Of a stretch of 64,000 bases of DNA, positions 243 to 61,586 are shown piece after piece. The stretch is taken from NCBI GenBank assembly GCA_942493235.1, contig OW818676.1, forward strand, positions 4,151,820-4,215,819. The letters are read 5' to 3'. Below the pieces are notes generated by a model, which searched no databases, was not told where the DNA came from, and was given only the letters and a program-made list of their open reading frames with translations. This DNA is from an uncultured bacterium. Its GTDB lineage: Bacteria > Bacteroidota > Ignavibacteria > Kapaibacteriales > UBA2268. A program made the translations under genes and the position numbers. How positions within the stretch are numbered: position 1 is the stretch's first letter; the number at the start of each line of letters is the position of its first letter.

Positions 243-686
243 TCACTTAGCTCTTACATACCAATGAGCTTGCCCGTCAACGCAGTCATCATCGAGAATC
301 AATGTGTCCGCCTTAAACTCAACTGTACCTCTGATTCCATAACCTTCTCTGACTTTATTATTAATTAATAGAAACATCATAGAATCATTTACAATATAGC
401 TGAATGCTTTTTTATATGAATAATTTAAGGTGTCAATAGTGCGATGTGTACTGTAAATTCTGTCTGAAATGACTGTCGAATCAAAAAATGTATAATATAA
501 ATTATACCCTTCGCTACTCGGTGTCCCTATATAAGCAGCGTAAATTCCTCCGGTAGTTTTGACCCATCTCCATTCACCGATTAGATCCTTACCGGTTTTT
601 TCTGAAACAGAGCCAGTACTGTCGCTACAAGAATAAAAGCATATCCCTAAAATCAAAAAAATAAAAAATGTAAAATATGTTTTCAT
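243..686 (-). CDS. Small exported lipoprotein, paralog 1 of 3 (tandem family)
   Basis: Signal peptide plus Cys (ICFYSCSDST); conserved motifs LIGEWRWVKTTGGI and DCVDGQAHWYVR shared with ORFs 910-1353 and 1450-1860. Confidence 0.6.
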   Translation of the reverse strand: MKTYFTFFIFLILGICFYSCSDSTGSVSEKTGKDLIGEWRWVKTTGGIYAAYIGTPSSEGYNLYYTFFDSTVISDRIYSTHRTIDTLNYSYKKAFSYIVNDSMMFLLINNKVREGYGIRGTVEFKADTLILDDDCVDGQAHWYVRAK

Positions 687-909
687 AACTCTCCTATTTA
701 GCTAATTAAAAATCCAATTATTATATAAAACGTATTAAAATAACGATAGTTACAAAATAAACATATAGCTAACAATATAAGTTCGTTTCAAAAACCATTG
801 ATTTATGTTTTTATAAAATTCCAATCATTCGCAATGCCTATATCCCAACACTGAAGCAGGGATTGAATAAAAAATGAATCAAAATACTGTACTTATGCAA
901 AAGTCTTCT

Positions 910-1353
910 TTATCTTACTCTTACATACCAATGAGCTTGCCCATCAACGCAGTCTTCACCAAGAATCAATGTATCCACCTTAAACTCGACTACCGAACGT
1001 AATTTATAGTCAGCTCCCGGGTCAAACGGAAATCGGTACTCTATCCAAAACATATTAACAGAATCTTTACTTAAATAGCTAAGGTCTTTCCTATAAATAT
1101 ATTTAGAAGTATCGGTAATTACTCCGTTCTTCTTTGATATCAGCAGAGTGTCTATGAAGATATAATTCAAATTATATCCAGCTTTTTCGGGTGTTAATAA
1201 ATAATTACCGTCGATTCCTCCGGTAGTTTTAACCCATCTCCACTCACCGATAAGACTTTCACTGTAATTGTCTTTTGACGATGTACTGTCGCTACAAGAA
1301 TATAAGCATATCCCTGCTATCAGTATTATACAAAATGTAAAATATTTTTTCAT
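910..1353 (-). CDS. Small exported lipoprotein, paralog 2 of 3
   Basis: Same N-terminal signal/lipobox and N- and C-terminal motifs as 243-686; central region diverged. Confidence 0.6.
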   Translation of the reverse strand: MKKYFTFCIILIAGICLYSCSDSTSSKDNYSESLIGEWRWVKTTGGIDGNYLLTPEKAGYNLNYIFIDTLLISKKNGVITDTSKYIYRKDLSYLSKDSVNMFWIEYRFPFDPGADYKLRSVVEFKVDTLILGEDCVDGQAHWYVRVR

Positions 1354-1449
1354 AACTCTCCCTTATGACTATACTAAAACAATTATAAATGTCTTTGATG
1401 TTTATATAAAACTACGTATAATGGTGCATATTAATTATTTCGAATTACA

Positions 1450-1860
1450 TCAGTTACGAACATAAAAATGAGTCTGGCCGTCAACGTTATCTTCATGTAA
1501 AATCACAGTATCTTTGATGAAAGTTACAATAGTCGGTATTCCATAATGAGGTGTTTCGCGGAATTTATAACAGATTAACAACAAATTAGTAGAATCTTTT
1601 GTATAAGTATAGTTTAGTGTATCGGTAGCAATATCATCCTTTTTAATGATAAGAAGCGAATCACTAAATATATAATACTCATTATGCCCCACACTGCTTG
1701 GAGTGATTACGGAGCCTGCAATTCCTCCGGTAGTTTTAAGCCATCTCCACTCACCGATTAGACTTTCACTGTAATTATCATTTGACGATGTACTGTCGCT
1801 ACAAGAATAAAAGCATATCCCTGCTATCAGTATAATACAAAATGTAAAATATTTTTTCAT
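1450..1860 (-). CDS. Small exported lipoprotein, paralog 3 of 3
   Basis: Same family; its upstream non-coding region (1861-2045) is ~85% identical by eye to that upstream of paralog 1 (700-870). Confidence 0.6.
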   Translation of the reverse strand: MKKYFTFCIILIAGICFYSCSDSTSSNDNYSESLIGEWRWLKTTGGIAGSVITPSSVGHNEYYIFSDSLLIIKKDDIATDTLNYTYTKDSTNLLLICYKFRETPHYGIPTIVTFIKDTVILHEDNVDGQTHFYVRN

Positions 1861-13792: not shown

Positions 13793-13946
13793 CTATCGAA
13801 TATTATCCCTTTGATTTTAGGGATATTGATTCAATTATTACTTTATCATGATAAAAGACATAATTTCTGGGCTTATAGTATAAGGCTGTTGCAAAACTAT
13901 AAAATTTTCAATTTCCATTTGTTCAAGAGGCTGACTAAAAATTTGT

Positions 13947-14022
13947 CATTCTGAACGAAGTGAAGAATCCAGATAAAGCTAACTTGTAGATAATTCTGGA
14001 TTCTTCGTTTCACTCAGAATGA
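13947..14022. repeat. Palindromic hairpin element, copy 1, between convergent kinase gene and groEL
   Basis: cattctgaacgaagtgaagaatccag / ctggattcttcgtttcactcagaatg arms pair over 26 positions with 2 mismatches, ~20-nt loop; near-identical copy at 16756-16829; T/A runs on both sides. Confidence 0.6.
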
Positions 14023-14075
14023 CGATTTAGAAACATTATTACTTTTTTGATAACCTCTAGGAAATTATATAATAA

Positions 14076-14133: not shown

Positions 14134-15789
<1,656 letters not shown>

Positions 15790-15948
15790 TTATTCTTATT
15801 AAAATTTTTATTTATATTTCTCAATTTTTTCAAAGCATTGCTTTGAGTTTATTATTTCTCATTACAACATTCCGAACTTTTTCTCATAACAACGCTATGC
15901 GTTGTAATGTCTGGCAATCCTACGCAGTGCGTAGGAGTAAGAAAATAT

Positions 15949-16236
15949 TTATTTTACGATAGCAAAAACGTCAGATTCTCTCATCATTAAATAGTCTTCG
16001 CCGTCCATAGAAATTTCAGTACCTGAATATTTGCCGTAGATTACTTGGTCGTTTACTTTTACTTGTAGAGGAAGTACTTTGCCCTCTTCAGTGATTTTGC
16101 CGTTACCAACAGCGATTACTGTACCCTGCATTGGTTTTTCTTTTGCAGTATCGGGAATAATAATTCCGCCCTTAGTTACTTCTTCAGGAGCAGAAGCTTT
16201 TACGATAATTCTGTCGTATAATGGTGTTAAATTCAT
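15949..16236 (-). CDS. groS: Co-chaperonin GroES (10 kDa)
   Basis: 95 aa, [13 protein letters not shown]...GTVIAVGNG... typical Cpn10; immediately upstream of groEL. Confidence 0.95.
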
Positions 16237-16292
16237 TTGAAACCTCCAATTATAAATTATTATATAAAAAATGTATTGTTATTATTTAGATT

Positions 16293-16319
16293 TTAGCACT
16301 CTCAGTACAAGAGTGCTAA
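16293..16319. promoter_or_regulatory. CIRCE operator (HrcA binding site) in the groES-groEL promoter region
   Basis: TTAGCACTC-tcagtacaa-GAGTGCTAA, a perfect 9-N9-9 match to the CIRCE consensus, ~60-80 bp upstream of the groES start. Confidence 0.85.
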
Positions 16320-16654
16320 CAATTTGACGATAGTATTTTTTTATTATTGTAGAGGTAGGGATTTTTTTAGTAAAATTATTTGGTAATTTATGTATAAATT
16401 GGGTCTTCGCTATTTTAAGTGGGTTAGCAAATAATTGTTATTAGTATAAAGAAAATCCTTAAATATCAAATATTGATTTTTGATATTTAATTGGATATAC
16501 ATCTTTAATTTTATATTTTAACTCCGTTAGATGTTGAATATTGGTAATATAATGAATAAACTACTCCCCATTCTTAATACATCAAATATAATATAATATA
16601 TTATGTAAACCGTAATTCGTAATTGAAACAAGCCCTCTCCTTCCCTTCCTCAAA

Positions 16655-16715
16655 CGTTCTGCGTCGTGCGGCTGTTCTTCCAACATCGTTAGATGTTGAA
16701 TATTGGTAAAATGAA
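16655..16715. repeat. Dispersed intergenic repeat family 'ctgcgt(a/c)gtgcggct-ttctt-caaca(g/t)cgttagatgttgaatattggta' (copy D)
   Basis: Near-identical cores at 25205-25260, 61262-61300 and 16517-16550 (3' half); first-half relatives at 59155-59190 and 15912-15942. Confidence 0.55.
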
Positions 16716-16755
16716 AGTTTAAATATACTCCCATAAAGCTTTCTAAAATATTGTC

Positions 16756-16829
16756 ATTCTGAACGATTGAAGAATCCAGATAAAACTTACTTGCTGATAA
16801 TTCTGGATTCTTCGTTTCACTCAGAATAA
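16756..16829. repeat. Palindromic hairpin element, copy 2, downstream of the lytTR-type regulator gene, in the long groES upstream region
   Basis: gtcattctgaacgattgaagaatccaga ... tctggattcttcgtttcactcagaataac; same family as 13947-14022, including the flanking sequence cactcagaat(g/a)acgattt(a/g)g. Confidence 0.6.
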
Positions 16830-16900
16830 CGATTTGGCAATATTATTACTTATTAGGCAGCCTTAAAATAGAATTTTTTAATAGTAATTCGTAATTGAAT

Positions 16901-19885: not shown

Positions 19886-20007
19886 AAAATATTTTTGAAT
19901 ACTCCCTCTTCCGCTCAGCGTAGGAGGGAGAAGCTGACCCCTTCTATATAGAGACTATGTAAATAATCTTTAATTTCTATTGATAATAATTACAGTGCAT
20001 GTTTCCC

Positions 20008-20160
20008 TACGCTGAAGCGTGAGGTTGAATGCCGCTGGGGTGAGCATTTGCGACAAATTAATTGAATTACACAGCCTCTTCAGCGTGGGGTTGAATGCCG
20101 CTGGGGTGGGCATTTGCGACAAATTAATTGAATTACACAGTCTCTGAAGCATTGGAATTG
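20008..20160. repeat. ~66-bp tandem repeat (about 2.3 units) containing the hairpin motif gctgaagcgtg(a/g)ggttgaatgccgctggggtg
   Basis: Units at ~20008-20076 and 20077-20142 are near-identical; a related single copy lies at 57371-57420 (ccccacgctgaagcgtggggttgaatggagtgggcg). Confidence 0.65.
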
Positions 20161-24210: not shown

Positions 24211-24430
24211 TGCTTCTGAGTGCAACTAAGAATTTGTAATTATTATAAATCAACATTATCTTGTTTCTTGGTCCTTCGCTATTATGTGTGGGTAAGCAAA
24301 TCAGCGAAGAACCTAAAAATTAGTAATAGCCAAAAGATACTTGAATATAAGCATCTACTCGATCAAAATATTTAGATAATAAAAAAGTCTATTCTTCTAT
24401 AATTTATTTATTAAAAGATACGGAGCTGAT

Positions 24431-25108: not shown

Positions 25109-25282
25109 TTATTTATTTTTATATGTCTGTAGCAAAAGTCCATAATATTTATTTACTGTAAATTTTTCTAGGAATTTGCACGCCTCCTTACTATGCTATG
25201 CGTAGTGCGGCTTTTCTTACAACAGCGTTAGCTGTTGAATATTGGTAGCATAGATTTGGAACTCCCTTTCGTCTCCTTACTA

Positions 25283-26636
25283 TAAGGCTGTTGCACGGTA
25301 AATAATGGAGTAAGTACTTGTATTTTATATAAATTATGCGTATATTTGTGTACCTATAATGTACAATTCAGTAATTGAAATATGGATAAGAGTAAAAATA
25401 ATACAATGGCTGATTTTCTTTGTAAAGAAAGAGCTCGTAAACTTAAACATCAGTTTTTACAACAAGTAGATGCAATAATAGACTGGGAGCCTATTAATAA
25501 AGTAATTAATAGATACTACAAAAAAGTTGCAAGTGCGACAGGTCGTCCAGCTTATAGTGGACTGTTGTTATTCAAAATGAGTTTACTACAAACTTGGTAT
25601 GGAATGAGTGACTATGAAGCTGAAGAAAGAATAAATGATTCCTTGAGTTTTAGCTACTTTTGCGGATTATCAGTAGAAGAAGCATCTCCAGACCACAGCA
25701 CCTTGAGTCGCTTTCGCTCATTGTTGACAGAGCGTAGAGTATATGATAATCTCTTTACAGAAATAAACAGACAATTAGAAAAAAAGGGGATATTAGTCAA
25801 AAAGGGGATAATCGTAGATGCCAGTATAATAGATACACCTTACAAACCTCGCACGAAAGCCGGTTATGAGATAGAGCAGGATAGAAATGAAAGTCAACGC
25901 ACAGATGAAGAATTAAAAAAGGAAAATCAAGAAGTAAAGTATTTAGAAGTCCATCAGTCAAGCGTTGATACGCAAGCCAGATGGATAAAAAAAGGAGGTC
26001 GAGCAAGGTTCGGATATAAAAAGCACGTATTAACAAATCAAGATGGGTTAGTAATCGGAGCTTTGACAACTCCAGCCAATGTAAATGAAATAAGTAATTT
26101 AGCAGATGTATTACAAACTGCAAAATTTCCGGAGTATATCCCATTTTATGGAGACAAGGGTTATAATTCAGAAAAGAACAGTGAATTATTGAAAAGTAGA
26201 AACTTAATTAACCGAATATTGAAGAAAGCAAAAAAAAATAGACCACTAAAAGCAATAGAAAAGTTATTCAACAAGCTATGTGGCAAAACAAGATTTAAAG
26301 TTGAAAGAACATTCGGAAGTATGCGTAGTTGGTTTAAAAGTGAAAGAGCACGTTATCGGGGAATTGCCAAAACGCATAGTCAGATTATGATGGAATCGAT
26401 TGCGTATAACTTATACCGGAGTCCCGGGATAGTTATATCCAATGCGAAAAAAGGGTAATAAAACAGAAAGGAAAGACATATCTATGTACTGATTTTAGAT
26501 TGAAATATAGAAGGTAAACGCAAAATATGAAAATATTTAGCAAAATAACTTCACCAATATTAATAATATTTTAGAATGCAACCAGAATATTTACACTTAT
26601 CTACAAACCTACCCTTTTGCAACAGCCTTGAATTTA
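25283..26636 (+). mobile_element. IS5-family insertion sequence (boundaries approximate)
   Basis: Transposase ORF at 25382-26458 is flanked by inverted 12-13 bp aaggctgttgca (25286-25298) and tgcaacagcctt (26621-26633). Confidence 0.5.
25382..26458 (+). CDS. IS5-family DDE transposase
   Basis: N-terminal block LLFKMSLLQTWYGMSDYEAEERINDSLSFSYFCGL...PDHSTLSRFR is characteristic of IS5-family (IS1182/IS5 group) transposases. Confidence 0.85.
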   Translation: MDKSKNNTMADFLCKERARKLKHQFLQQVDAIIDWEPINKVINRYYKKVASATGRPAYSGLLLFKMSLLQTWYGMSDYEAEERINDSLSFSYFCGLSVEEASPDHSTLSRFRSLLTERRVYDNLFTEINRQLEKKGILVKKGIIVDASIIDTPYKPRTKAGYEIEQDRNESQRTDEELKKENQEVKYLEVHQSSVDTQARWIKKGGRARFGYKKHVLTNQDGLVIGALTTPANVNEISNLADVLQTAKFPEYIPFYGDKGYNSEKNSELLKSRNLINRILKKAKKNRPLKAIEKLFNKLCGKTRFKVERTFGSMRSWFKSERARYRGIAKTHSQIMMESIAYNLYRSPGIVISNAKKG

Positions 26637-28915: not shown

Positions 28916-29038
28916 TAATAATAAAAACAGTTTAAGGATTAAATCAATGGAAATATTACGAGTCACCACCAAAAATTGGGGATTATGCAAAAAGTTTGGA
29001 GAGCCTAAAGAGAAAGAACTTGTTGTCAATAACCCCTC

Positions 29039-29362
29039 TTAAGTTAGCTCTAAATAGCTTAATTTTAGCATTAAATGATTCAGCATTGGCATTAGTACTA
29101 CGGTTAAGAAGTTCAGTATATTCTCAAAGTTGTGTTTTAAAGTGTTTGTAGCGGTATTAAACTCTTTAATATTCAGCATTTCTGTATTTATAAACCATTG
29201 CTTCATTTTAGTCTCAGCGTGATATCTGCTTTGGTTTTCATATATATTTCTAAACTCTAAAATGTGGTTATAAGCTTTTTCTATGACAGGGTATCGTTTG
29301 AACAAAATATTAGCTCTCTGGGATTGAGATAAAGTCCATTGATATGGCTTTTTATAAAGCAA
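29039..29362 (-). pseudogene. Remnant of an ISL3-family transposase (C-terminal region only)
   Basis: ...ILFKRYPVIEKAYNHILEFRNIYE...NIKEFNTATNTLKHNFENILNF matches the conserved spacing of the ISL3 transposase C-terminal region; no N-terminal part is present. Confidence 0.45.
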
Positions 29363-29520
29363 TAATCTACAACAGCTAACGCTGTTCTAAGAAAGATTTC
29401 TTTATTTGCTTACCCACACATAATAGCGAATGACCATTTTTTTACACTAAAAACAGCAAAGAATTTTTTTAATTTCCTGCTTATAGTAATATGAAGAAAT
29501 TAAAGAACTTTAAAACAGAT

Positions 29521-41147: not shown

Positions 41148-44100
41148 CTATTTATTCTTCTCCGCTTTTAAAATAAATTCGGCTTTAATTACCTTTTTAC
41201 TCGTTTTGCTGATTTTATATTTATTACTTAATCGCTTACCGACTACCCAAATTATTTCCGACTTTGTAGTTAGAAGTATTATATTTTGCTTCTCCATAAT
41301 CGGAACCTTAATATTGCTTAAGAAATCGCTTACTTTAACATGCCCCTCCATACCAAGTGGCTGGAAAATATCTCCGGTCTCCCAACTACGCAATTGCAAA
41401 TATGAAGGAATTAGTTCGGCATCTATATACTCAATATTTGTATCTTTATTGAAGTCAGCAGTTTTCCGCTGTACTTCGGTTAATCTTAAAATATGCGTAC
41501 CGAGGTCATATTCGCCGGTTCGCTCTATTTGCATATCAACTTTAAAAGTAGAACTTTTAATTGAAAATACAAGATGATTTCTATCTTTAAGTACAAAAGC
41601 ATTTTTATTTATGTCGCATATTGAGCCACTCGGTGATTCGCAGAGCGACAGAATTCTATCGATAGTATTTGATGTTATTGGTAATGATTTAAATACCTTA
41701 ACTACTGATTGCTGTATTATCTCACTTTGGATAAATTCGGTAAAAGTCTGCAATTGCGGAATATTAATATAATATCTGTCTTTTCTTCTGTCTTTAATCA
41801 GAATTTGAAGCAATCCATTAACGTAAGTATTAATAAAATCATCAGCTCCACGTAAAATGGCAGCAGTCTTATTAATAGTTTCTATAATTGCTGGAGAGAA
41901 ATCCTCTTTTAATTTCGGCAATAGGTCTAATCTTATTTTATTTCGAGTATAATTGGTAAGAGCGTTTGTCTCGTCTTCTCTCCAAGCTAATTTTCTTTCT
42001 TTTGCATATTCATATATATCAGATTTCTTAATATTGATGATAGGTCTGATCAAGTGCGAATTTTTAGTAAGTATTCGCTTTTTTGGAATTCCGGTTAATC
42101 CGGTAAGACCTGTACCACGCATCAGATTAAGTAAAAATGTTTCGGCACTATCGTCAGAAGTATGAGCGGTAGCCACAAAATTAATCTTTAAATTGCCGGC
42201 TAATCTCTCGAACATTTTATAACGTCGCACTCTGGCAGCTTGCTCAATAGAAATTGAATTTGCCGAAGCATAAGCCATAATGTTTTCTGAATTAGTATAG
42301 ACCTTTAATGCGTATTTCTCTGATATTTTGCGAACTAATTCTTCATCTTCATCAGAAGACAATCCCCTAAGATTATGATTAAAATGAGCCACAATTAGCG
42401 TAAATTTATATTTTTCGGATAGCTGGGCAAACATATCAAGTAACGAAATTGAGTCAACTCCCCCGCTTACAGCAACCATTATTCTTGCTCCTTCAGCAAC
42501 AAATAATTCTTCAGTTAGGGAATATTCAAATTTTTTGAGTAAAGCCTCAACAGTTGGATTGCTTGGTTTATCAGGATTAATAAGCATTTTTGACGAAATT
42601 TTAGAATATACCAAATCATCATTCGGATTTTTCTTTAGCTTTTTAATTGGCTCCGGAGCTACTTCAAAAGTAGTTTTGATATAATTGGGGTCCATTACCA
42701 ACGGATCAATTATTTCATCAGGGTCGTCAAGTTCAATCTTTTCATTAGTGTATTTATGCTTATTCTGGAATTTTGTATTCTTATGTTTATTTCTATTATC
42801 AGACTTTTCTTTGACTTCTTTCTCTACCGCTACGACTTTCTCAATCGAAACCTCTTCAATTGGCTTATCGGCTTCGGAGCTAATCTCGTCTAATTGGACA
42901 GTTCCGGATTTTAATAATTGCTCTGCTTCTAAAGCAGCTTTCTCTGCTTTAAGCTTTTTGGCAAATTTCTTCCGTCTGTTATTTCTCTGTGAAGCCGTTT
43001 CTTTTTTATATTCTTCATTAGTAACGACTTCGCTTATAGTTTCATTAGGTAATACAATCGCATCTGATGCTAAATCAAGAATTTTAGCAGTTGTATTTTC
43101 CTTTTTATGCTTGTTAATATTTTTAGAAAAAGGCAACCTGATTATTTCATTTTTTTCTTCAATAATAGGTTCTTTAACTTCTCTTTCAGAAATATTTTCA
43201 TTAACAGAAACTGATTCAATCGGCTTATTTTGCTGTTTATTTTGATTCTTTTTACTAAAAGGTAATCTTATCGTTTTTGAACTAATAATTGTTAATATAG
43301 GCTCTACTTCAGATTTACTACTTTCTCCTCTTTTATCTTCTGCCTTATTAGTTTCAGCGTTTGGAAAATCAGTGGCATTGCTATTTCTGTTTTTCTGCCA
43401 ATTATTATTTTGGGAATTATTACTACGGAAATTATTATTACGAGAATTATTATTTTGGGAATTATTACTACGAAAACTATTATTTTTTTGTTGTGGTTTT
43501 AACCTTTGACTCTCAGCATTTGAATTCTCTATTATCTCTGAACTTACTCTTTCAGTACTTAATTTCTCAGTATTAATTTTTGATTCCACTCGTTGAGTGT
43601 TTGCAGTTCTATCATTAGAATTTTGCTTTGATTCCACTCGTTGAGTATTTACAGTTCTATCATTAGGATTTTGCTTTGATTCCACTCGTTGAGTGTTTGC
43701 AGTTCTATCATTAGGATTTTGCTTTGATTCCACTCGTTGAGTGTTTACAGTTTTTTCATTAGGATTTTGCTTTGGTTCCACTCGTTGAGTATTTACAGTT
43801 CTATCATTAGGATTTTTATCATTCAGATTCTGTTTTGATTCCACTCGTTGAGTATTTACAGTTCTATCATTAGAATTTTGCTTTGGTTCCACTCGTTGAG
43901 TGTTTACAGTTCTATCATTAGGATTTCTATCATTCAGATTCTGCTTTGATTCAGCTCTTTGAGTGTTTACAGTTCTATCATTTGAATTTCTATCATTCAG
44001 ATTCTGCTTTGATTCAGCTCTTTGAGTGTTTACAGTTCTATCATTAGGATTTCTATCATTCAGATTTTGCTTTGGTTCAGCTCTTTGAGTATTTACAGTT

Positions 44101-45341
44101 CTATCATTAGGATTCTGCTTTGATTCAGCTCTTTGAGTATTTACAGTTCTATCATTAGGATTCTGCTTTGGTTCCACTCTTTGAGTGTTTGAATTTACTT
44201 TTGTTAGAGGTTCTTGATTATTTAAAGATTGTCCATCTATAGTACTTTTTTCAAATGTATCTGATTTAACTTGACTTTGACTATTGGGCTGAATCAAATT
44301 TTTATTTCTGTTCAGAGGAGAATGTCTTTTCTGATTAACAATAGTAACAATAGCCGGTAAATTATTTTCTTTTTTATCGGATAGAGTTTTATTCGTCGGA
44401 GCTGATGATAATTTATCTTTTTCTGAAGGGATAATACTTTCCGCATTCACTTTTTTGGAGCTTGTTTGGGCTTTATCATCAAATAATGCATTGTTGTCAT
44501 TATTTGAATATTTAGGTTTATTCCTAAAACTATTCCTATTTTGAAAATCTTTAGTAGGATTAGATTCATCAGAATTTAAAGTAGGAGCATTATCACGAGT
44601 ATTTGCTTTTTGCTCTACACTTTGCTTTGAATAATGATGAGTATGCTTTGGCTTTTGCTCTACAGCAGGCTTTGCAAAATTCTCCTGTTGACTTGCTTTT
44701 TGCTCTACAGTCTGTTTTGAATAATTCGGAAGTTTGGACTTTTGCTCTACAGCAGGCTTTGCAAAATTCTCTTGTTGATTTGCTTTTTGCTCTACACTTT
44801 GCTTTGAATAATGATGAGTATGCTTTGGCTTTTGCTCTACAGCAGGCTTTGCAAAATTCTCTTGTTGACTTGCTTTTTGCTCAACAGTCTGTTTTGAATA
44901 ATTCGTTTGCTTTTGCTCTACGGCAACTTTTGCAAAATTTTCCTGTTGACTTGCTTTTTGCTCATCGGTTTGTTTGGAATAATTATTCTGATGTTTAGGC
45001 TTATGATCTAAAATCGGTCTTGAATAATTGCTTGAGCGATTATCCTTGCTATAGCCTTGTTTTGAGCCTTCATCACTTGCAGAATGCTTGCTATCAGAGC
45101 GGTATTTGCTCTTATAATTGGAATTGCTTCTATAATCATCATTATAGCCGGTATTTGGCTGATAATTTGGTTTTACTCCCCGAACTTGTTCAGGATTAAC
45201 AATTAATCTATCATCTGTCGAAAGCTTAATATCTCTAAGCAGAGGTTTTTTCTTAATATATCCGCCGCTTTTACTATCTGATTTTTCTTTATTAGCGGAA
45301 TAATTATGAATCTTATTATTTTCTGTATTTGTTTTTGCCAT
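41148..45341 (-). CDS. tilS: tRNA(Ile)-lysidine synthetase with ~900-aa N-terminal low-complexity repeat extension (single open frame)
   Basis: C-terminal ~480 aa has the PP-loop ARIMVAVSGGVDSISLL and full TilS-like length; upstream ~900 aa is N/Q/K/S-rich tandem repeats (NTQRVESKQNPNDRTV x~12; KQTVEQKASQQENFAKPAVEQKPKHTHHYS x~4) with no in-frame stop. Confidence 0.65.
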   Translation of the reverse strand: MAKTNTENNKIHNYSANKEKSDSKSGGYIKKKPLLRDIKLSTDDRLIVNPEQVRGVKPNYQPNTGYNDDYRSNSNYKSKYRSDSKHSASDEGSKQGYSKDNRSSNYSRPILDHKPKHQNNYSKQTDEQKASQQENFAKVAVEQKQTNYSKQTVEQKASQQENFAKPAVEQKPKHTHHYSKQSVEQKANQQENFAKPAVEQKSKLPNYSKQTVEQKASQQENFAKPAVEQKPKHTHHYSKQSVEQKANTRDNAPTLNSDESNPTKDFQNRNSFRNKPKYSNNDNNALFDDKAQTSSKKVNAESIIPSEKDKLSSAPTNKTLSDKKENNLPAIVTIVNQKRHSPLNRNKNLIQPNSQSQVKSDTFEKSTIDGQSLNNQEPLTKVNSNTQRVEPKQNPNDRTVNTQRAESKQNPNDRTVNTQRAEPKQNLNDRNPNDRTVNTQRAESKQNLNDRNSNDRTVNTQRAESKQNLNDRNPNDRTVNTQRVEPKQNSNDRTVNTQRVESKQNLNDKNPNDRTVNTQRVEPKQNPNEKTVNTQRVESKQNPNDRTANTQRVESKQNPNDRTVNTQRVESKQNSNDRTANTQRVESKINTEKLSTERVSSEIIENSNAESQRLKPQQKNNSFRSNNSQNNNSRNNNFRSNNSQNNNWQKNRNSNATDFPNAETNKAEDKRGESSKSEVEPILTIISSKTIRLPFSKKNQNKQQNKPIESVSVNENISEREVKEPIIEEKNEIIRLPFSKNINKHKKENTTAKILDLASDAIVLPNETISEVVTNEEYKKETASQRNNRRKKFAKKLKAEKAALEAEQLLKSGTVQLDEISSEADKPIEEVSIEKVVAVEKEVKEKSDNRNKHKNTKFQNKHKYTNEKIELDDPDEIIDPLVMDPNYIKTTFEVAPEPIKKLKKNPNDDLVYSKISSKMLINPDKPSNPTVEALLKKFEYSLTEELFVAEGARIMVAVSGGVDSISLLDMFAQLSEKYKFTLIVAHFNHNLRGLSSDEDEELVRKISEKYALKVYTNSENIMAYASANSISIEQAARVRRYKMFERLAGNLKINFVATAHTSDDSAETFLLNLMRGTGLTGLTGIPKKRILTKNSHLIRPIINIKKSDIYEYAKERKLAWREDETNALTNYTRNKIRLDLLPKLKEDFSPAIIETINKTAAILRGADDFINTYVNGLLQILIKDRRKDRYYINIPQLQTFTEFIQSEIIQQSVVKVFKSLPITSNTIDRILSLCESPSGSICDINKNAFVLKDRNHLVFSIKSSTFKVDMQIERTGEYDLGTHILRLTEVQRKTADFNKDTNIEYIDAELIPSYLQLRSWETGDIFQPLGMEGHVKVSDFLSNIKVPIMEKQNIILLTTKSEIIWVVGKRLSNKYKISKTSKKVIKAEFILKAEKNK
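43580..44200. repeat. Coding tandem repeat, 48-bp unit (some 63 bp), about 12 copies
   Basis: gattccactcgttgagtgtttacagttctatcattaggattttgcttt iterated; encodes the 16-aa unit NTQRVESKQNPNDRTV on the minus strand. Confidence 0.8.
44600..44990. repeat. Coding tandem repeat, ~90-bp unit, about 4 copies
   Basis: gctttttgctctaca(c/g)t(t/c)tg(c/t)tttgaataa...ttttgctctacagcaggctttgcaaaattctc(c/t)tgttgactt iterated. Confidence 0.75.
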
Positions 45342-57245: not shown

Positions 57246-57596
57246 GAATTCTGAATAAAGCAAAGTTCAACTAAGTCAAAGCGGACTAAGGACTTGTATC
57301 TCCACCCTTATGAATAGTGTGTAAAAACCTTTGATAACTACCATTTATCGACCAATTACAATTACTAAAAGTCTCTGATCCCCACGCTGAAGCGTGGGGT
57401 TGAATGGAGTGGGCGATAAAAATTGCGGACATTTGAAGAAAGTTTGGAGTATTTTCACAAGCACCGATGAGTGATGTTGAATGATATACTACTATCATTT
57501 GTTATAGCTAAGATGGATTTTTACAACCACCGAAAGGTGGACTGTTAGATTCGATATATCCCATTTCTTGTAATAAATGATATTTTCCACAGAATA

Positions 57597-59104: not shown

Positions 59105-59368
59105 ATTAGCTGCTGGGGGCTGGAAATAGGAATTGGGAATTGTACGCCTCCGTACTACGCTCTGCGTAGTGCCGCTGGAGGCTGAAAACCCTTTCAACCC
59201 CACCCAAACCCTCCCCAAGGGGAGGGCTAAAAGTTTATGATTGGGAAATGGGGGCTGGGGGCTATTCTTCAAATTCCCCTCCAAAAGGAGGGGTGGCATC
59301 GCGAAGCGATGACGGGGTGGGTTCTTTCTTCGGAATTGGGAAATAGGAATTGGATCGGAACTTCCGCT
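59105..59368. repeat. GC-rich hairpin island with internal and flanking direct repeats
   Basis: Consecutive perfect hairpins (gcctccg...cggaggc; ccctcccc-aa-ggggaggg; cccctcc-aaaa-ggagggg; catcgc-gaa-gcgatg); direct repeats ggaaataggaattgg at 59123 and 59337; gctgggggct at 59110 and 59253. Confidence 0.55.
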
Positions 59369-61212
59369 CGTCATATTGCAATAAGTAACTAATCTACCAA
59401 CAGATAAGTGTATTTTTGTTTAAATATACGTAGGCATTTTTATTAATGATAAATAATTTGTATATAAAATATTTATGCTTATATTTGTAAGCATTGTATT
59501 TTATTTGGAGATTATTATGTACGTTTCTAGAATTGCTAACAATAATAAATCTGAGAAAACTAAATATACAAGCCTGATAAGAGAATCTTACAGGGAGAAT
59601 GGGAAAGTTAAGACAAGAGTTATTTGTAATATATCGCATCTACCCGAAGATGAAATTTTAGCTATTGAATTTGCCTTGAAAAACAGAGGCGATGTCTCAA
59701 AATATTTAAAAGTCAAAGAATCAAGCCAAGTCTATAAAAGCGTCGGAGCAGTTCAGCTAATTTATGAAATATTAAAGAAATTTGGTGTGCATAAAGCTTT
59801 AGGCTCTAAATTAGAAGGCAAGCTTGCTCTAATGCAAATAATATCAAGAGTTATTAATCAAGGTTCTTGTTTGTCAACAATCCGCTATACATCAAATCAA
59901 GCATTATGCGAAGTGCTCAACATTCAAGAAAAAATCAGTGAAGACAGTTTATATGACAATCTTTCATGGCTATCATCAAATCAATCGAAAATCGAAGTCA
60001 AATTATTTAACGAGCGATTTAAAGGTTCTAAGCCAACATTATTTTTATATGATGTAACAAGCAGTTACTTCGAAGGTGAACATAATGATTTGGCAGAATG
60101 GGGCTATAATCGAGACAAAAAGAAAGGTAAAAAGCAAGTAGTTGCGGGATTATTGTGTGATGAAGACGGATATCCGTTATCAATAGAGCTGTTTGAAGGC
60201 AACACACTTGATTATCAAACATTTGGTAATCAGATTAAAAAAGTAGTCGAGAAGTTTAAATGCGAATATGTAACCTTTGTCGGAGACAGAGGTATGATTA
60301 AATCAAAGCAAGTAGATGAAATTACTGAAAATGATTTTTATTATATAACTGCAATAACCAAACCGCAGATTCAAACACTGTTAAATTCCGGTATAATAGA
60401 AATGAGCCTTTTTGATACTGAATTAAAAGAAGTAGAAAATAATGGCGTTCGTTATGTATTAAGACGTAATCCGCAACGTACTTTAGAAATACGTAGGTCA
60501 AGAAAGCAAAAGAGAGAAAAATTAGAAAGTTTTTTAAAAGAAAAAAATGATTATTTAGAAATGCACTCTAAAGCCTGTGTCGATGTAGCTAAAAAAAACG
60601 TAGATGAAAAAATAAAGAAGCTAAAATTAGATAGCTATTTATCTGTAGATGTATCAAAAGATAATAATCGTAAATTAGCAGTCTTTATCGATGAGCAGTT
60701 ACTTGCAGAATTATCTTTACTCGACGGATGCTATATAATTAAGACAAATTTACCGACTACAGTTGATAAAGAAATTATTCACAGCAGATACAAGGACTTA
60801 TCAAAAGTAGAAACAGCATTTAAGAATATGAAGACAGAAGTTCTTGAATTAAGACCTTGGTTCGTTCAGACAGAAGCGAGCACTCGCGGACACGCGTTTG
60901 TTGTCATGCTTGCATATTTAGTAATTAAGTATTTGAGAAATAACTGGAAAATATTTGGAATTCCCGTGGCTGAGGCTATTGACTCATTTAATAATCTATC
61001 AATTATCGAAGAAACTTACAAGACTGGAGAAAAGATTTATGTAATACCGGAGCCAAATAATAAGATGAAACAACTACTGGAGGCAATTAATGTTAAATTG
61101 CCAACTACATTACCACATATCAAAATAAATGTAGTCAGTAGAAAATTAAAGTAATATCATTTTAACTAATTTATATTACATATACTTAGATGCTGTTCTT
61201 GCCTTGTTTATT
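59369..61212 (+). mobile_element. IS1634-family insertion sequence (boundaries tentative)
   Basis: Transposase ORF flanked by 11-bp direct repeats cggaacttccg at 59358-59368 and 61215-61225. Confidence 0.4.
59517..61154 (+). CDS. IS1634-family (IS4-like DDE) transposase
   Basis: N-terminus MYVSRIANNNKSEKTKYTSLIRESYRENGKVKTRVICNISHL is typical of IS1634-family transposases; ~545 aa. Confidence 0.65.
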   Translation: MYVSRIANNNKSEKTKYTSLIRESYRENGKVKTRVICNISHLPEDEILAIEFALKNRGDVSKYLKVKESSQVYKSVGAVQLIYEILKKFGVHKALGSKLEGKLALMQIISRVINQGSCLSTIRYTSNQALCEVLNIQEKISEDSLYDNLSWLSSNQSKIEVKLFNERFKGSKPTLFLYDVTSSYFEGEHNDLAEWGYNRDKKKGKKQVVAGLLCDEDGYPLSIELFEGNTLDYQTFGNQIKKVVEKFKCEYVTFVGDRGMIKSKQVDEITENDFYYITAITKPQIQTLLNSGIIEMSLFDTELKEVENNGVRYVLRRNPQRTLEIRRSRKQKREKLESFLKEKNDYLEMHSKACVDVAKKNVDEKIKKLKLDSYLSVDVSKDNNRKLAVFIDEQLLAELSLLDGCYIIKTNLPTTVDKEIIHSRYKDLSKVETAFKNMKTEVLELRPWFVQTEASTRGHAFVVMLAYLVIKYLRNNWKIFGIPVAEAIDSFNNLSIIEETYKTGEKIYVIPEPNNKMKQLLEAINVKLPTTLPHIKINVVSRKLK

Positions 61213-61586
61213 TCCGGAACTTCCGTTGGATAGTGGCGTTTGTAAAATCTGTTCTTTCCTTCCAACAGCGTTAGATGTTGAACATTGGTAACATAGACTT
61301 GTCCTTGCTCATTTTCTTGGTGGGAGCAGAGTCAAGACTAATGTTTTTACACATTTAAAACAACGAAGAGCCATGCTCTATTTCAATTTGTTAATGGTAT
61401 TTCAGCAAAATTAATTATGATTTTTGATAGGAGATATATTCTGTTCACGTTTATTATTTTTAGTTAAATAGCTATCATAGATTTCTGCTATACTCTTTAA
61501 TCTGTAATCCCATAGTTTCGATTGTTTTTTAACGAAAAAAAAAGTATATTGTATCTGTTATTTTGGACTCTGTGAAAATATACATT

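Follow-up and report, generated by a model that had tools for sequence, protein, structure and literature searches.

Repetitive extragenic palindromic (REP) elements are known targets of insertion sequences (IS) in enterobacteria and pseudomonads, and miniature inverted-repeat transposable elements (MITEs) are small dispersed repeats derived from IS by internal deletion. Here we describe a family of short repeats in a 64,000-nucleotide stretch of DNA from an uncultured bacterium of the order Kapaibacteriales (Ignavibacteria; contig OW818676.1, positions 4,151,820 to 4,215,819), referred to as the window. With a probability of roughly 55%, we consider the repeat to be a lineage-specific, non-coding short interspersed repeat of the kind represented by REP elements, bacterial interspersed mosaic elements (BIME) and MITEs, that is, selfish or neutral DNA. 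Five or six repeat pieces, all within the window, were examined.

The 22-nt core of the repeat, CGTTAGATGTTGAATATTGGTA, occurs with at most three mismatches at 16525, 16687, 25226 and 61269, always on the plus strand, where shuffled sequences led us to expect none. The dispersed family proposed in a preliminary description of this DNA is thus real and not a set of chance matches. Copies are 88-94% identical to one another over 33-49 nt, as illustrated by 16660-16708 and 25199-25247 (90% over 49 nt), 25211-25254 and 61254-61297 (89%), and 25180-25208 and 59144-59172 (90%). In a profile search the pieces scored down to E = 1e-8 to 1e-12, and a fifth piece, absent from the preliminary description, was recovered on the minus strand (29361-29395, E = 2e-8). 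The unit is about 85-100 nt long, non-coding, and carries two small hairpins, CTAYGC-N3-GCGTAG (hairpin 1, 15 nt) and CAACAKC-GTTA-GMTGTTG (hairpin 2, 18 nt). The window holds three full-length copies, one of them split, and two partial copies, every one in intergenic DNA; the family had been called GC-rich, which is correct relative to the window (39-45% G+C vs 33%) and only in that sense. The pieces are as follows.

25172-25283, plus strand: repeat copy A, intact and full length
16636-16732, plus strand: repeat copy C, full length, its 5′ part diverged, within a block bracketed upstream of groES by a 16-bp direct repeat
59133-59177, plus strand: 5′ half of a split copy (half B), ending in GTGCCGCTG
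61249-61297, plus strand: 3′ half of the split copy (half D), beginning with CTGTTCTTTCC
16522-16547, plus strand: partial copy C′, reduced to the 3′ arm of hairpin 2 and AATATTGGTA, abutting the right-end relic of an ISAon1-family element
29364-29394, minus strand: partial copy E, the pyrimidine tract and hairpin 2, 9 nt from a 33-nt motif termed module X

Copy A displays the complete order of parts. Its 5′ part consists of GGAATTTGC-ACGCCTCCTTACTAT, hairpin 1 (CTATGC-TAT-GCGTAG), TGCGGCT and a pyrimidine tract, and its 3′ part of hairpin 2 (CAACAGC-GTTA-GCTGTTG), AATATTGGTA, GCATAGATTTGG and ACTCCC (25261-25266). An 11-nt direct repeat, CTCCTTACTAT, lies near both ends, at 25184 and 25273; its 5′ occurrence is part of the element, as it is conserved in half B. 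Four of five pieces retain hairpin 2, which shows a single double change (CAACATC/GATGTTG vs CAACAGC/GCTGTTG). Two of three half-copies proposed earlier are genuine: that at 16517-16550 extends in truth from 16522 to 16547, and that at 59155-59190 from 59143 to 59177, being 90% identical to 25180-25208. The third, at 15912-15942, reached a profile E of only 0.19-0.44 and has in common with the repeat just the short palindrome CTACGC..GCGTAG.

The pieces at 59143 and 61254, which had not been recognised as related in this way, are the two halves of one copy. Halves B and D together align with copy A over about 85 nt, and joining 59125-59177 to 61252-61325 at their shared CTG gives an alignment with copy A that runs from ACGCCTCC to CATAGAYTTG. 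The 2,074 bp between the halves are made up of a 195-bp G-rich, hairpin-rich block and an IS1634-family element nested in that block.

59178-59355 (remainder 61232-61248), plus strand: G-rich, hairpin-rich block, with CTG on both sides
59356-61225, plus strand: IS1634-family element, 1870 bp (NCBIfam, 290 bits), with 11-bp terminal repeats CGGAACTTCCG

The IS1634 element is flanked by a 6-bp target duplication, TTGGAT, at 59350-59355 and 61226-61231, and a related-locus search seeded with its transposase returned no locus. The stretch 59137-59338, which contains the G-rich block, has 55% G+C. Three perfect small hairpins were seen in the block at 59178-59355 (CCCTCCCC/GGGGAGGG, CCCCTCC/GGAGGGG and CATCGC/GCGATG), and the motif GGAAATAGGAATTGG occurs at 59122 and again at 59339.

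Two further transposase loci adjoin repeat pieces.

25284-26629, plus strand: IS5-family element, 1346 bp, with 12-bp terminal inverted repeats (TIRs) AAGGCTGTTGCA
28961-29371, minus strand: frameshifted 3′ fragment of an ISAon1-family transposase gene (Pfam DDE_Tnp_ISL3; NCBIfam ISAon1 positions 200-327 of 327; homologues)

The IS5 element begins 19 nt past the ACTCCC of copy A, directly after the second CTCCTTACTAT. The ISAon1 fragment retains its own right terminal repeat (28961-28992) and is fused to copy E at its other end, its protein homology beginning within the 3′ arm of hairpin 2, at 29371; the boundary resembles a microhomology junction. Each of the window's three transposase loci lies 2-19 nt from a repeat piece, and the chance of three insertion sites falling this near to repeats in 7.7 kb of intergenic DNA was estimated, roughly and post hoc, at 0.0005-0.003. 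Because the copies are intergenic, one is split, two are truncated at ISAon1 remnants and one has an IS5 element 19 nt away, the repeats appear either to attract IS or to gather with them in the same tolerant spacers; we infer attraction rather than a mere sharing of tolerant sites. The repeat itself would have spread through intergenic regions by means of a trans-acting enzyme encoded elsewhere than in the window.

The densest accumulation lies upstream of groES. Both groEL (14134-15789) and groES (15949-16236) are on the minus strand, and beyond their promoter an extra stretch of about 550 bp contains, in this order, an ISAon1 relic with partial copy C′, the left 16-bp repeat, copy C, a long-hairpin element and the right 16-bp repeat.

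16293-16319, minus strand: CIRCE (controlling inverted repeat of chaperone expression) operator of groESL, TTAGCACTC-N9-GAGTGCTAA, kept in relatives and not part of the repeat family
16400-16521, minus strand: right-end relic of an ISAon1-family (ISL3-type) element, the last ~120-150 nt of the IS, ending in module X (16403-16435)
16612-16627, plus strand: 16-bp direct repeat GTAATTCGTAATTGAA, left copy
16735-16864, plus strand: long-hairpin element, copy 2, with remnants of IS5-like terminal repeats (left, AAAGCTTTCTAA; right, GGCAGCCTT)
16884-16899, plus strand: 16-bp direct repeat GTAATTCGTAATTGAA, right copy, directly after the stop codon of a LytTR response-regulator gene
13882-14066: long-hairpin element, sister copy 1

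The two occurrences of GTAATTCGTAATTGAA are exact, are the only ones in the window (chance expectation 0) and enclose 256 bp. The preliminary description had this pair and placed its left copy one nucleotide away, at 16611; its right copy had been put at 16877 instead of 16884. A hairpin element reported there is likewise real: 16751-16851 is 90% identical to the hairpin core of the sister copy at 13943-14044, and an exact 15-nt IS5 terminal repeat (13879-13893) precedes the latter. We also observed that the long-hairpin element (~80 nt, GTCATTCTGAACGAAGTGAAGAATCCAGA...) resembles a MITE of the window's IS5 element.

Comparison with relatives located the boundary of the extra DNA. By GroEL, the closest relatives (92-96% identical) derive largely from wastewater metagenomes; matches with names, at 82-86%, are Kapabacteria or Ignavibacteriota, which places the source among the uncultured Ignavibacteriota, and a GroEL-seeded related-locus search returned relatives of at most 80% identity only. 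Relatives with about 86% groEL nucleotide identity align through groEL, groES and the CIRCE/promoter region to 16350 and no further, and the upstream spacer of 95%-identical relatives measures 244 bp and leads to a different gene. None of the fetched relatives carries the repeats, and nhmmer profiles of three modules gave no match in the 98 fetched loci; the nearest relatives compared belong to different species. These comparisons support the view that the mosaic is inserted, lineage-specific DNA, as had been suggested when it was taken for a composite element with a target-site duplication; the reading of the direct repeats as target-site duplications was, however, not supported. Bounded by the response-regulator gene on one side and, on the other, by the groES promoter and CIRCE operator, which are intact and conserved, the mosaic is best read as an accumulation of mobile-element debris of three or more kinds: the ISAon1 relic, the IS5-type hairpin element and two copies of the repeat. 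This DNA would presumably have no role in the regulation of groES.

Observations at neighbouring spacers may be added. The groES-groEL spacer (15833-15925) is about 90 bp longer than in relatives, and three hairpins, all small, occur in the extra DNA (CCTACGCA/TGCGTAGG, ACAACGC/GCGTTGT and CAAAGCA/TGCTTTG). In one relative (L098, 96% identical) the contig stops near this insertion, 17 nt upstream of groEL and equivalent to 15803 of the window, as if the spacer there held a repeat too. For the metallo-beta-lactamase gene next to copy A, relatives show 83-86% amino-acid identity with synteny lost, and no empty site was recovered among them. Two of three relatives' contigs with the orthologous hydrolase gene (L095, L096) end at most 4 nt from its stop codon, and the third (L097) has IS5-like ends about 200 nt before the hydrolase start (TTGCAACAGGCT) and about 30 nt past the stop (ACAGCCTGTTGAA). 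This suggests that related species, too, have IS hot spots in the same spacers.

Module X, also absent from the preliminary description, is a 33-nt motif, TGGTC.TTCGCTATT.T..GTGGGT.AGCAAAT, found at 16403 (plus), 24269 (plus) and 29436 (minus). The first of these sites belongs to the relic upstream of groES; the others are listed here.

24269-24301, plus strand: module X copy F, an isolated ISAon1-type terminal repeat downstream of rsmI, 97% complementary to 29404-29436
29404-29436, minus strand: module X copy E, 33 nt from the transposase fragment 28961-29371

Its reverse complement shows the ISAon1 right-end pattern TTTGCTTAATCCCCA-N12-GATCC, as established from ends in unrelated metagenomes. 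Compared with the right end of one ISAon1 member (L001), it scored z = 3.2-4.2, a level reached by 0-12 of 2000 shuffles; matches to a second member (L003) and to the window's own ISAon1 remnant were weaker (z ~2). At the level of sequence, module X is identified by these matches as derived from an ISAon1 right end. The longer segment 16400-16547, read on the minus strand and globally aligned to the final 150 nt of two ISAon1 elements, again from unrelated metagenomes, gave z = 5.1 and 4.5; none of 1000 shuffles was as good, and the alignment also surpassed those of 42 control intergenic 150-mers, for which reason we regard this part of the mosaic as a decayed IS end. A terminal match combined with contiguity to transposase-coding sequence, as expected of ISAon1/ISL3 ends, was thus found for module X and for 16400-16547. 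The inverted pair of module X at 24269 and 29436 lies 5.1 kb apart, with an inversion or a composite structure as possible explanations, and encloses a metallo-beta-lactamase-fold hydrolase, the IS5 element, a putative bacterioferritin-like open reading frame (ORF), a type III polyketide synthase and an ICMT-family methyltransferase. A composite transposon bounded by this pair was rejected, as the 8-bp flanks differ (TGTTTCTT vs ATTTTTTT) and no sign of a single transposition event was seen.

The proximity of ISAon1 ends raises an alternative that we regard as unlikely: the core itself might be a relic of an ISAon1-like IS. Its opposite strand would then correspond to the coding region around the conserved motif '...YFINRSTNANAE...', about 108 nt upstream of the right terminal repeat, and the copies would be leftovers of decayed or internally deleted IS. 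The geometry fits, since in 16400-16547 the distance from the core to the TTTGC of module X is 106 nt vs 108 nt in real ISAon1 elements, and the whole 150 nt aligns to ISAon1 3′ ends with the z of 5.1 given above. Furthermore, the reverse strand of all copies reads [YC]ST[AST]N[ADG]V, tblastn aligns 29351-29467 to 'FFHQRSTNANAE...LFRL.KLF', and two of the five pieces adjoin module X in the same relative orientation. However, the tblastn match has an E of only 2.6, and the core alone, compared in five pieces with the DNA of two ISAon1 members, shows no significant homology (z = -0.6 to 2.6). In the three full-length copies the flank is a different one, ACGCCTCC...TGCGTAGTGCSGCT, with no ISAon1 terminal repeat. 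The copies are also about 90% identical to one another, whereas the relic around them is too decayed for BLAST to recognise.

As a lineage-specific interspersed repeat, the family has the general features of a MITE in being short (85-100 nt), non-coding and present in several dispersed intergenic copies (three full-length and two partial). A number of results weigh against the preferred reading as a lineage-specific repeat of the REP, BIME or MITE kind. The repeat has no TIRs; the sole inverted repeat, found in copy A, pairs 8 bp (CTATGCTA/TAGCATAG) and is unlike the ends of IS5 (AAGGCTGTTGCA), IS1634 (CGGAACTTCCG) or ISAon1. Alignment of the copies revealed no target-site duplication at equivalent boundaries either, and transposition is thus inferred and not shown; direct repeats of 11, 15 and 16 nt do occur at three loci, where they bracket non-equivalent segments. 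Among the window ORFs of at least 110 aa that were scanned, none encodes a Y1/RAYT transposase, TnpB, a reverse transcriptase or an integrase, which leaves no candidate for a mobilising enzyme there. The exact 22-25-nt core had no match in GTDB representative genomes, JGI metagenomes or IMG/VR, so that a high copy number and spread are unproven; if the source genome were in the collection searched with only the window masked, the family could even be confined to the window. Finally, the IS-association statistic is post hoc and rests on three events. An exact-pattern scan of IMG/VR with module X was also without matches, plasmid and phage collections gave none, and nothing relevant was found in the literature on ISAon1 or on repeats of Ignavibacteria.

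With no TIRs and with long direct repeats flanking non-equivalent segments, the repeat was rejected as a classical MITE. The earlier suggestion of a MITE derived from IS ends applies to parts of the mosaic, namely the ISAon1 relic and the IS5-like hairpin element, and not to the repeat itself, whose ends match no IS of the window.

The lack of TIRs and target duplications would be accounted for if the repeat were a REP-like or palindrome-associated transposable element (PATE)-like element whose hairpins are recognised as single-stranded DNA by a Y1 transposase (RAYT or IS200/IS605-type) encoded elsewhere in the genome, an explanation we consider rather improbable. The two short imperfect palindromes, their extragenic location and the modest GC enrichment agree with it, as do looser hairpins of the CTACGC/GCGTAG type in other spacers (15919-15935, 20005-20024 and 57379-57398) and the general role of REP elements as IS targets. 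Against this, no Y1 transposase domain was present in the ORFs scanned, no inverted pairs resembling REP doublets forming hairpins (REPIN) were found, and GTAG occurs only within the 3′ arm of hairpin 1 (TGCGTAGTGC) and not at the 5′ edge of a palindrome, a reading made by eye and without a systematic test.

A functional RNA or DNA, whether a small-RNA family, a module acting as promoter or operator, or a palindrome bound by protein that regulates neighbours including groES, is very improbable. The retention of hairpin 2 in most pieces, with its double change, and the slightly better folding of copy A than of its shuffles (z = -2.1) are in favour of it; the other z-scores from folding on the plus strand were -1.2 and +1.4. 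Covariation in hairpin 2 did not, however, rise above shuffles, as the single double change in 7 pairs was equalled by 316 of 500 of them, and Rfam gave no match to the repeat at gathering and E-value thresholds. The hairpins have no T-run and no copy is followed by a terminator, and the sole terminator-like site in a copy is weak and lies where copy C begins on its 5′ side (16659-16671). The copies are also inconsistent in how they are oriented and spaced relative to genes: those at 16522 and 16655 are directed away from groES and stand over 170 nt upstream of its promoter, outside the region conserved in relatives, and the others follow 3′ ends of genes or abut IS, one coming after a hydrolase gene and one after a transposase. 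One copy, moreover, tolerates a 2-kb interruption. On these grounds the small-RNA family and the promoter module, both offered in the preliminary description, were rejected.

Several further candidates were discarded. A coding peptide ending ...LDVEYW* is contradicted by the differences between copies A and C, five of five being non-synonymous in the only open frame. For a group II intron 5′ end (GTGCG), neither a reverse transcriptase nor a domain V was found; the stems are just 7 bp for an integron attC site; an intrinsic terminator lacks the T-run; and the spacing is wrong for a sigma-54 or extracytoplasmic function (ECF) promoter.

It is highly unlikely that the repeat is a dedicated, hairpin-bearing 'landing pad' into or beside which unrelated transposases (IS5, IS1634, ISAon1) insert by preference, so that insertions are channelled to harmless spacers, or that it is a new hairpin element with terminal direct repeats and long (11-16 nt) flanking duplications that is mobilised by a mechanism undescribed in bacteria.

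Other repetitive sequences were noticed in the window. A further GC-rich intergenic family at 20004-20147 and 57379-57427 consists of a 66-bp unit in tandem (92-95% identical), which opens with the hairpin CCCYACGC-TGAA-GCGTGRGG followed by TTGAATG; its third copy lies downstream of a thioredoxin gene. In a minus-strand ORF at 41148-45341, a TilS PP-loop domain (aa 954-1137) is preceded by an N-terminal extension of some 950 aa encoded by tandem repeats of 45-48 nt (families D1, D2 and D7); this might be a fused repetitive gene or a mis-joined ORF. Three tandem paralogous ORFs of 136-147 aa occupy 243-1860 (minus strand), with DNA segments 76-95% identical and no Pfam match.

For this genome, the results delimit three IS elements as well as a small repeat family, and they indicate that the long groES upstream region is mobile-element debris and not regulatory DNA, a finding of little import beyond annotation. 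Repeats of this type will break short-read assemblies, and contigs of relatives do end exactly at such sites. If a genome-wide preference of IS of three families for sites in or next to the repeat were true, it would be an Ignavibacteriota example of the known targeting of REP elements by IS.

Among described systems, MITEs resemble the repeat in being small, non-coding, dispersed and intergenic, and its neighbours in the mosaic, module X and the long-hairpin element, appear to be IS-derived; in contrast to MITEs, the repeat has no TIRs matching IS5, IS1634 or ISAon1 and no target duplication of fixed length. The ISAon1 family is linked to the locus by module X with the family's right-end pattern TTTGCTTA-CCCA-N12-GACC, by the transposase fragment adjoining one copy and by the alignment of 16400-16547 to the 3′ end of its members, whereas the core is not significantly similar to it and full-length copies are without ISAon1 ends. 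From the REP elements and BIMEs of enterobacteria and pseudomonads the repeat differs in its greater length (85-100 nt), its two distinct hairpins, the lack of inverted pairs and of a linked RAYT gene, and its sequence, which has no similarity to theirs. It resembles them in its build and surroundings: both are short extragenic repeats around small imperfect palindromes, both are mixed with other motifs into intergenic mosaics, and both often adjoin IS or are hit by them.

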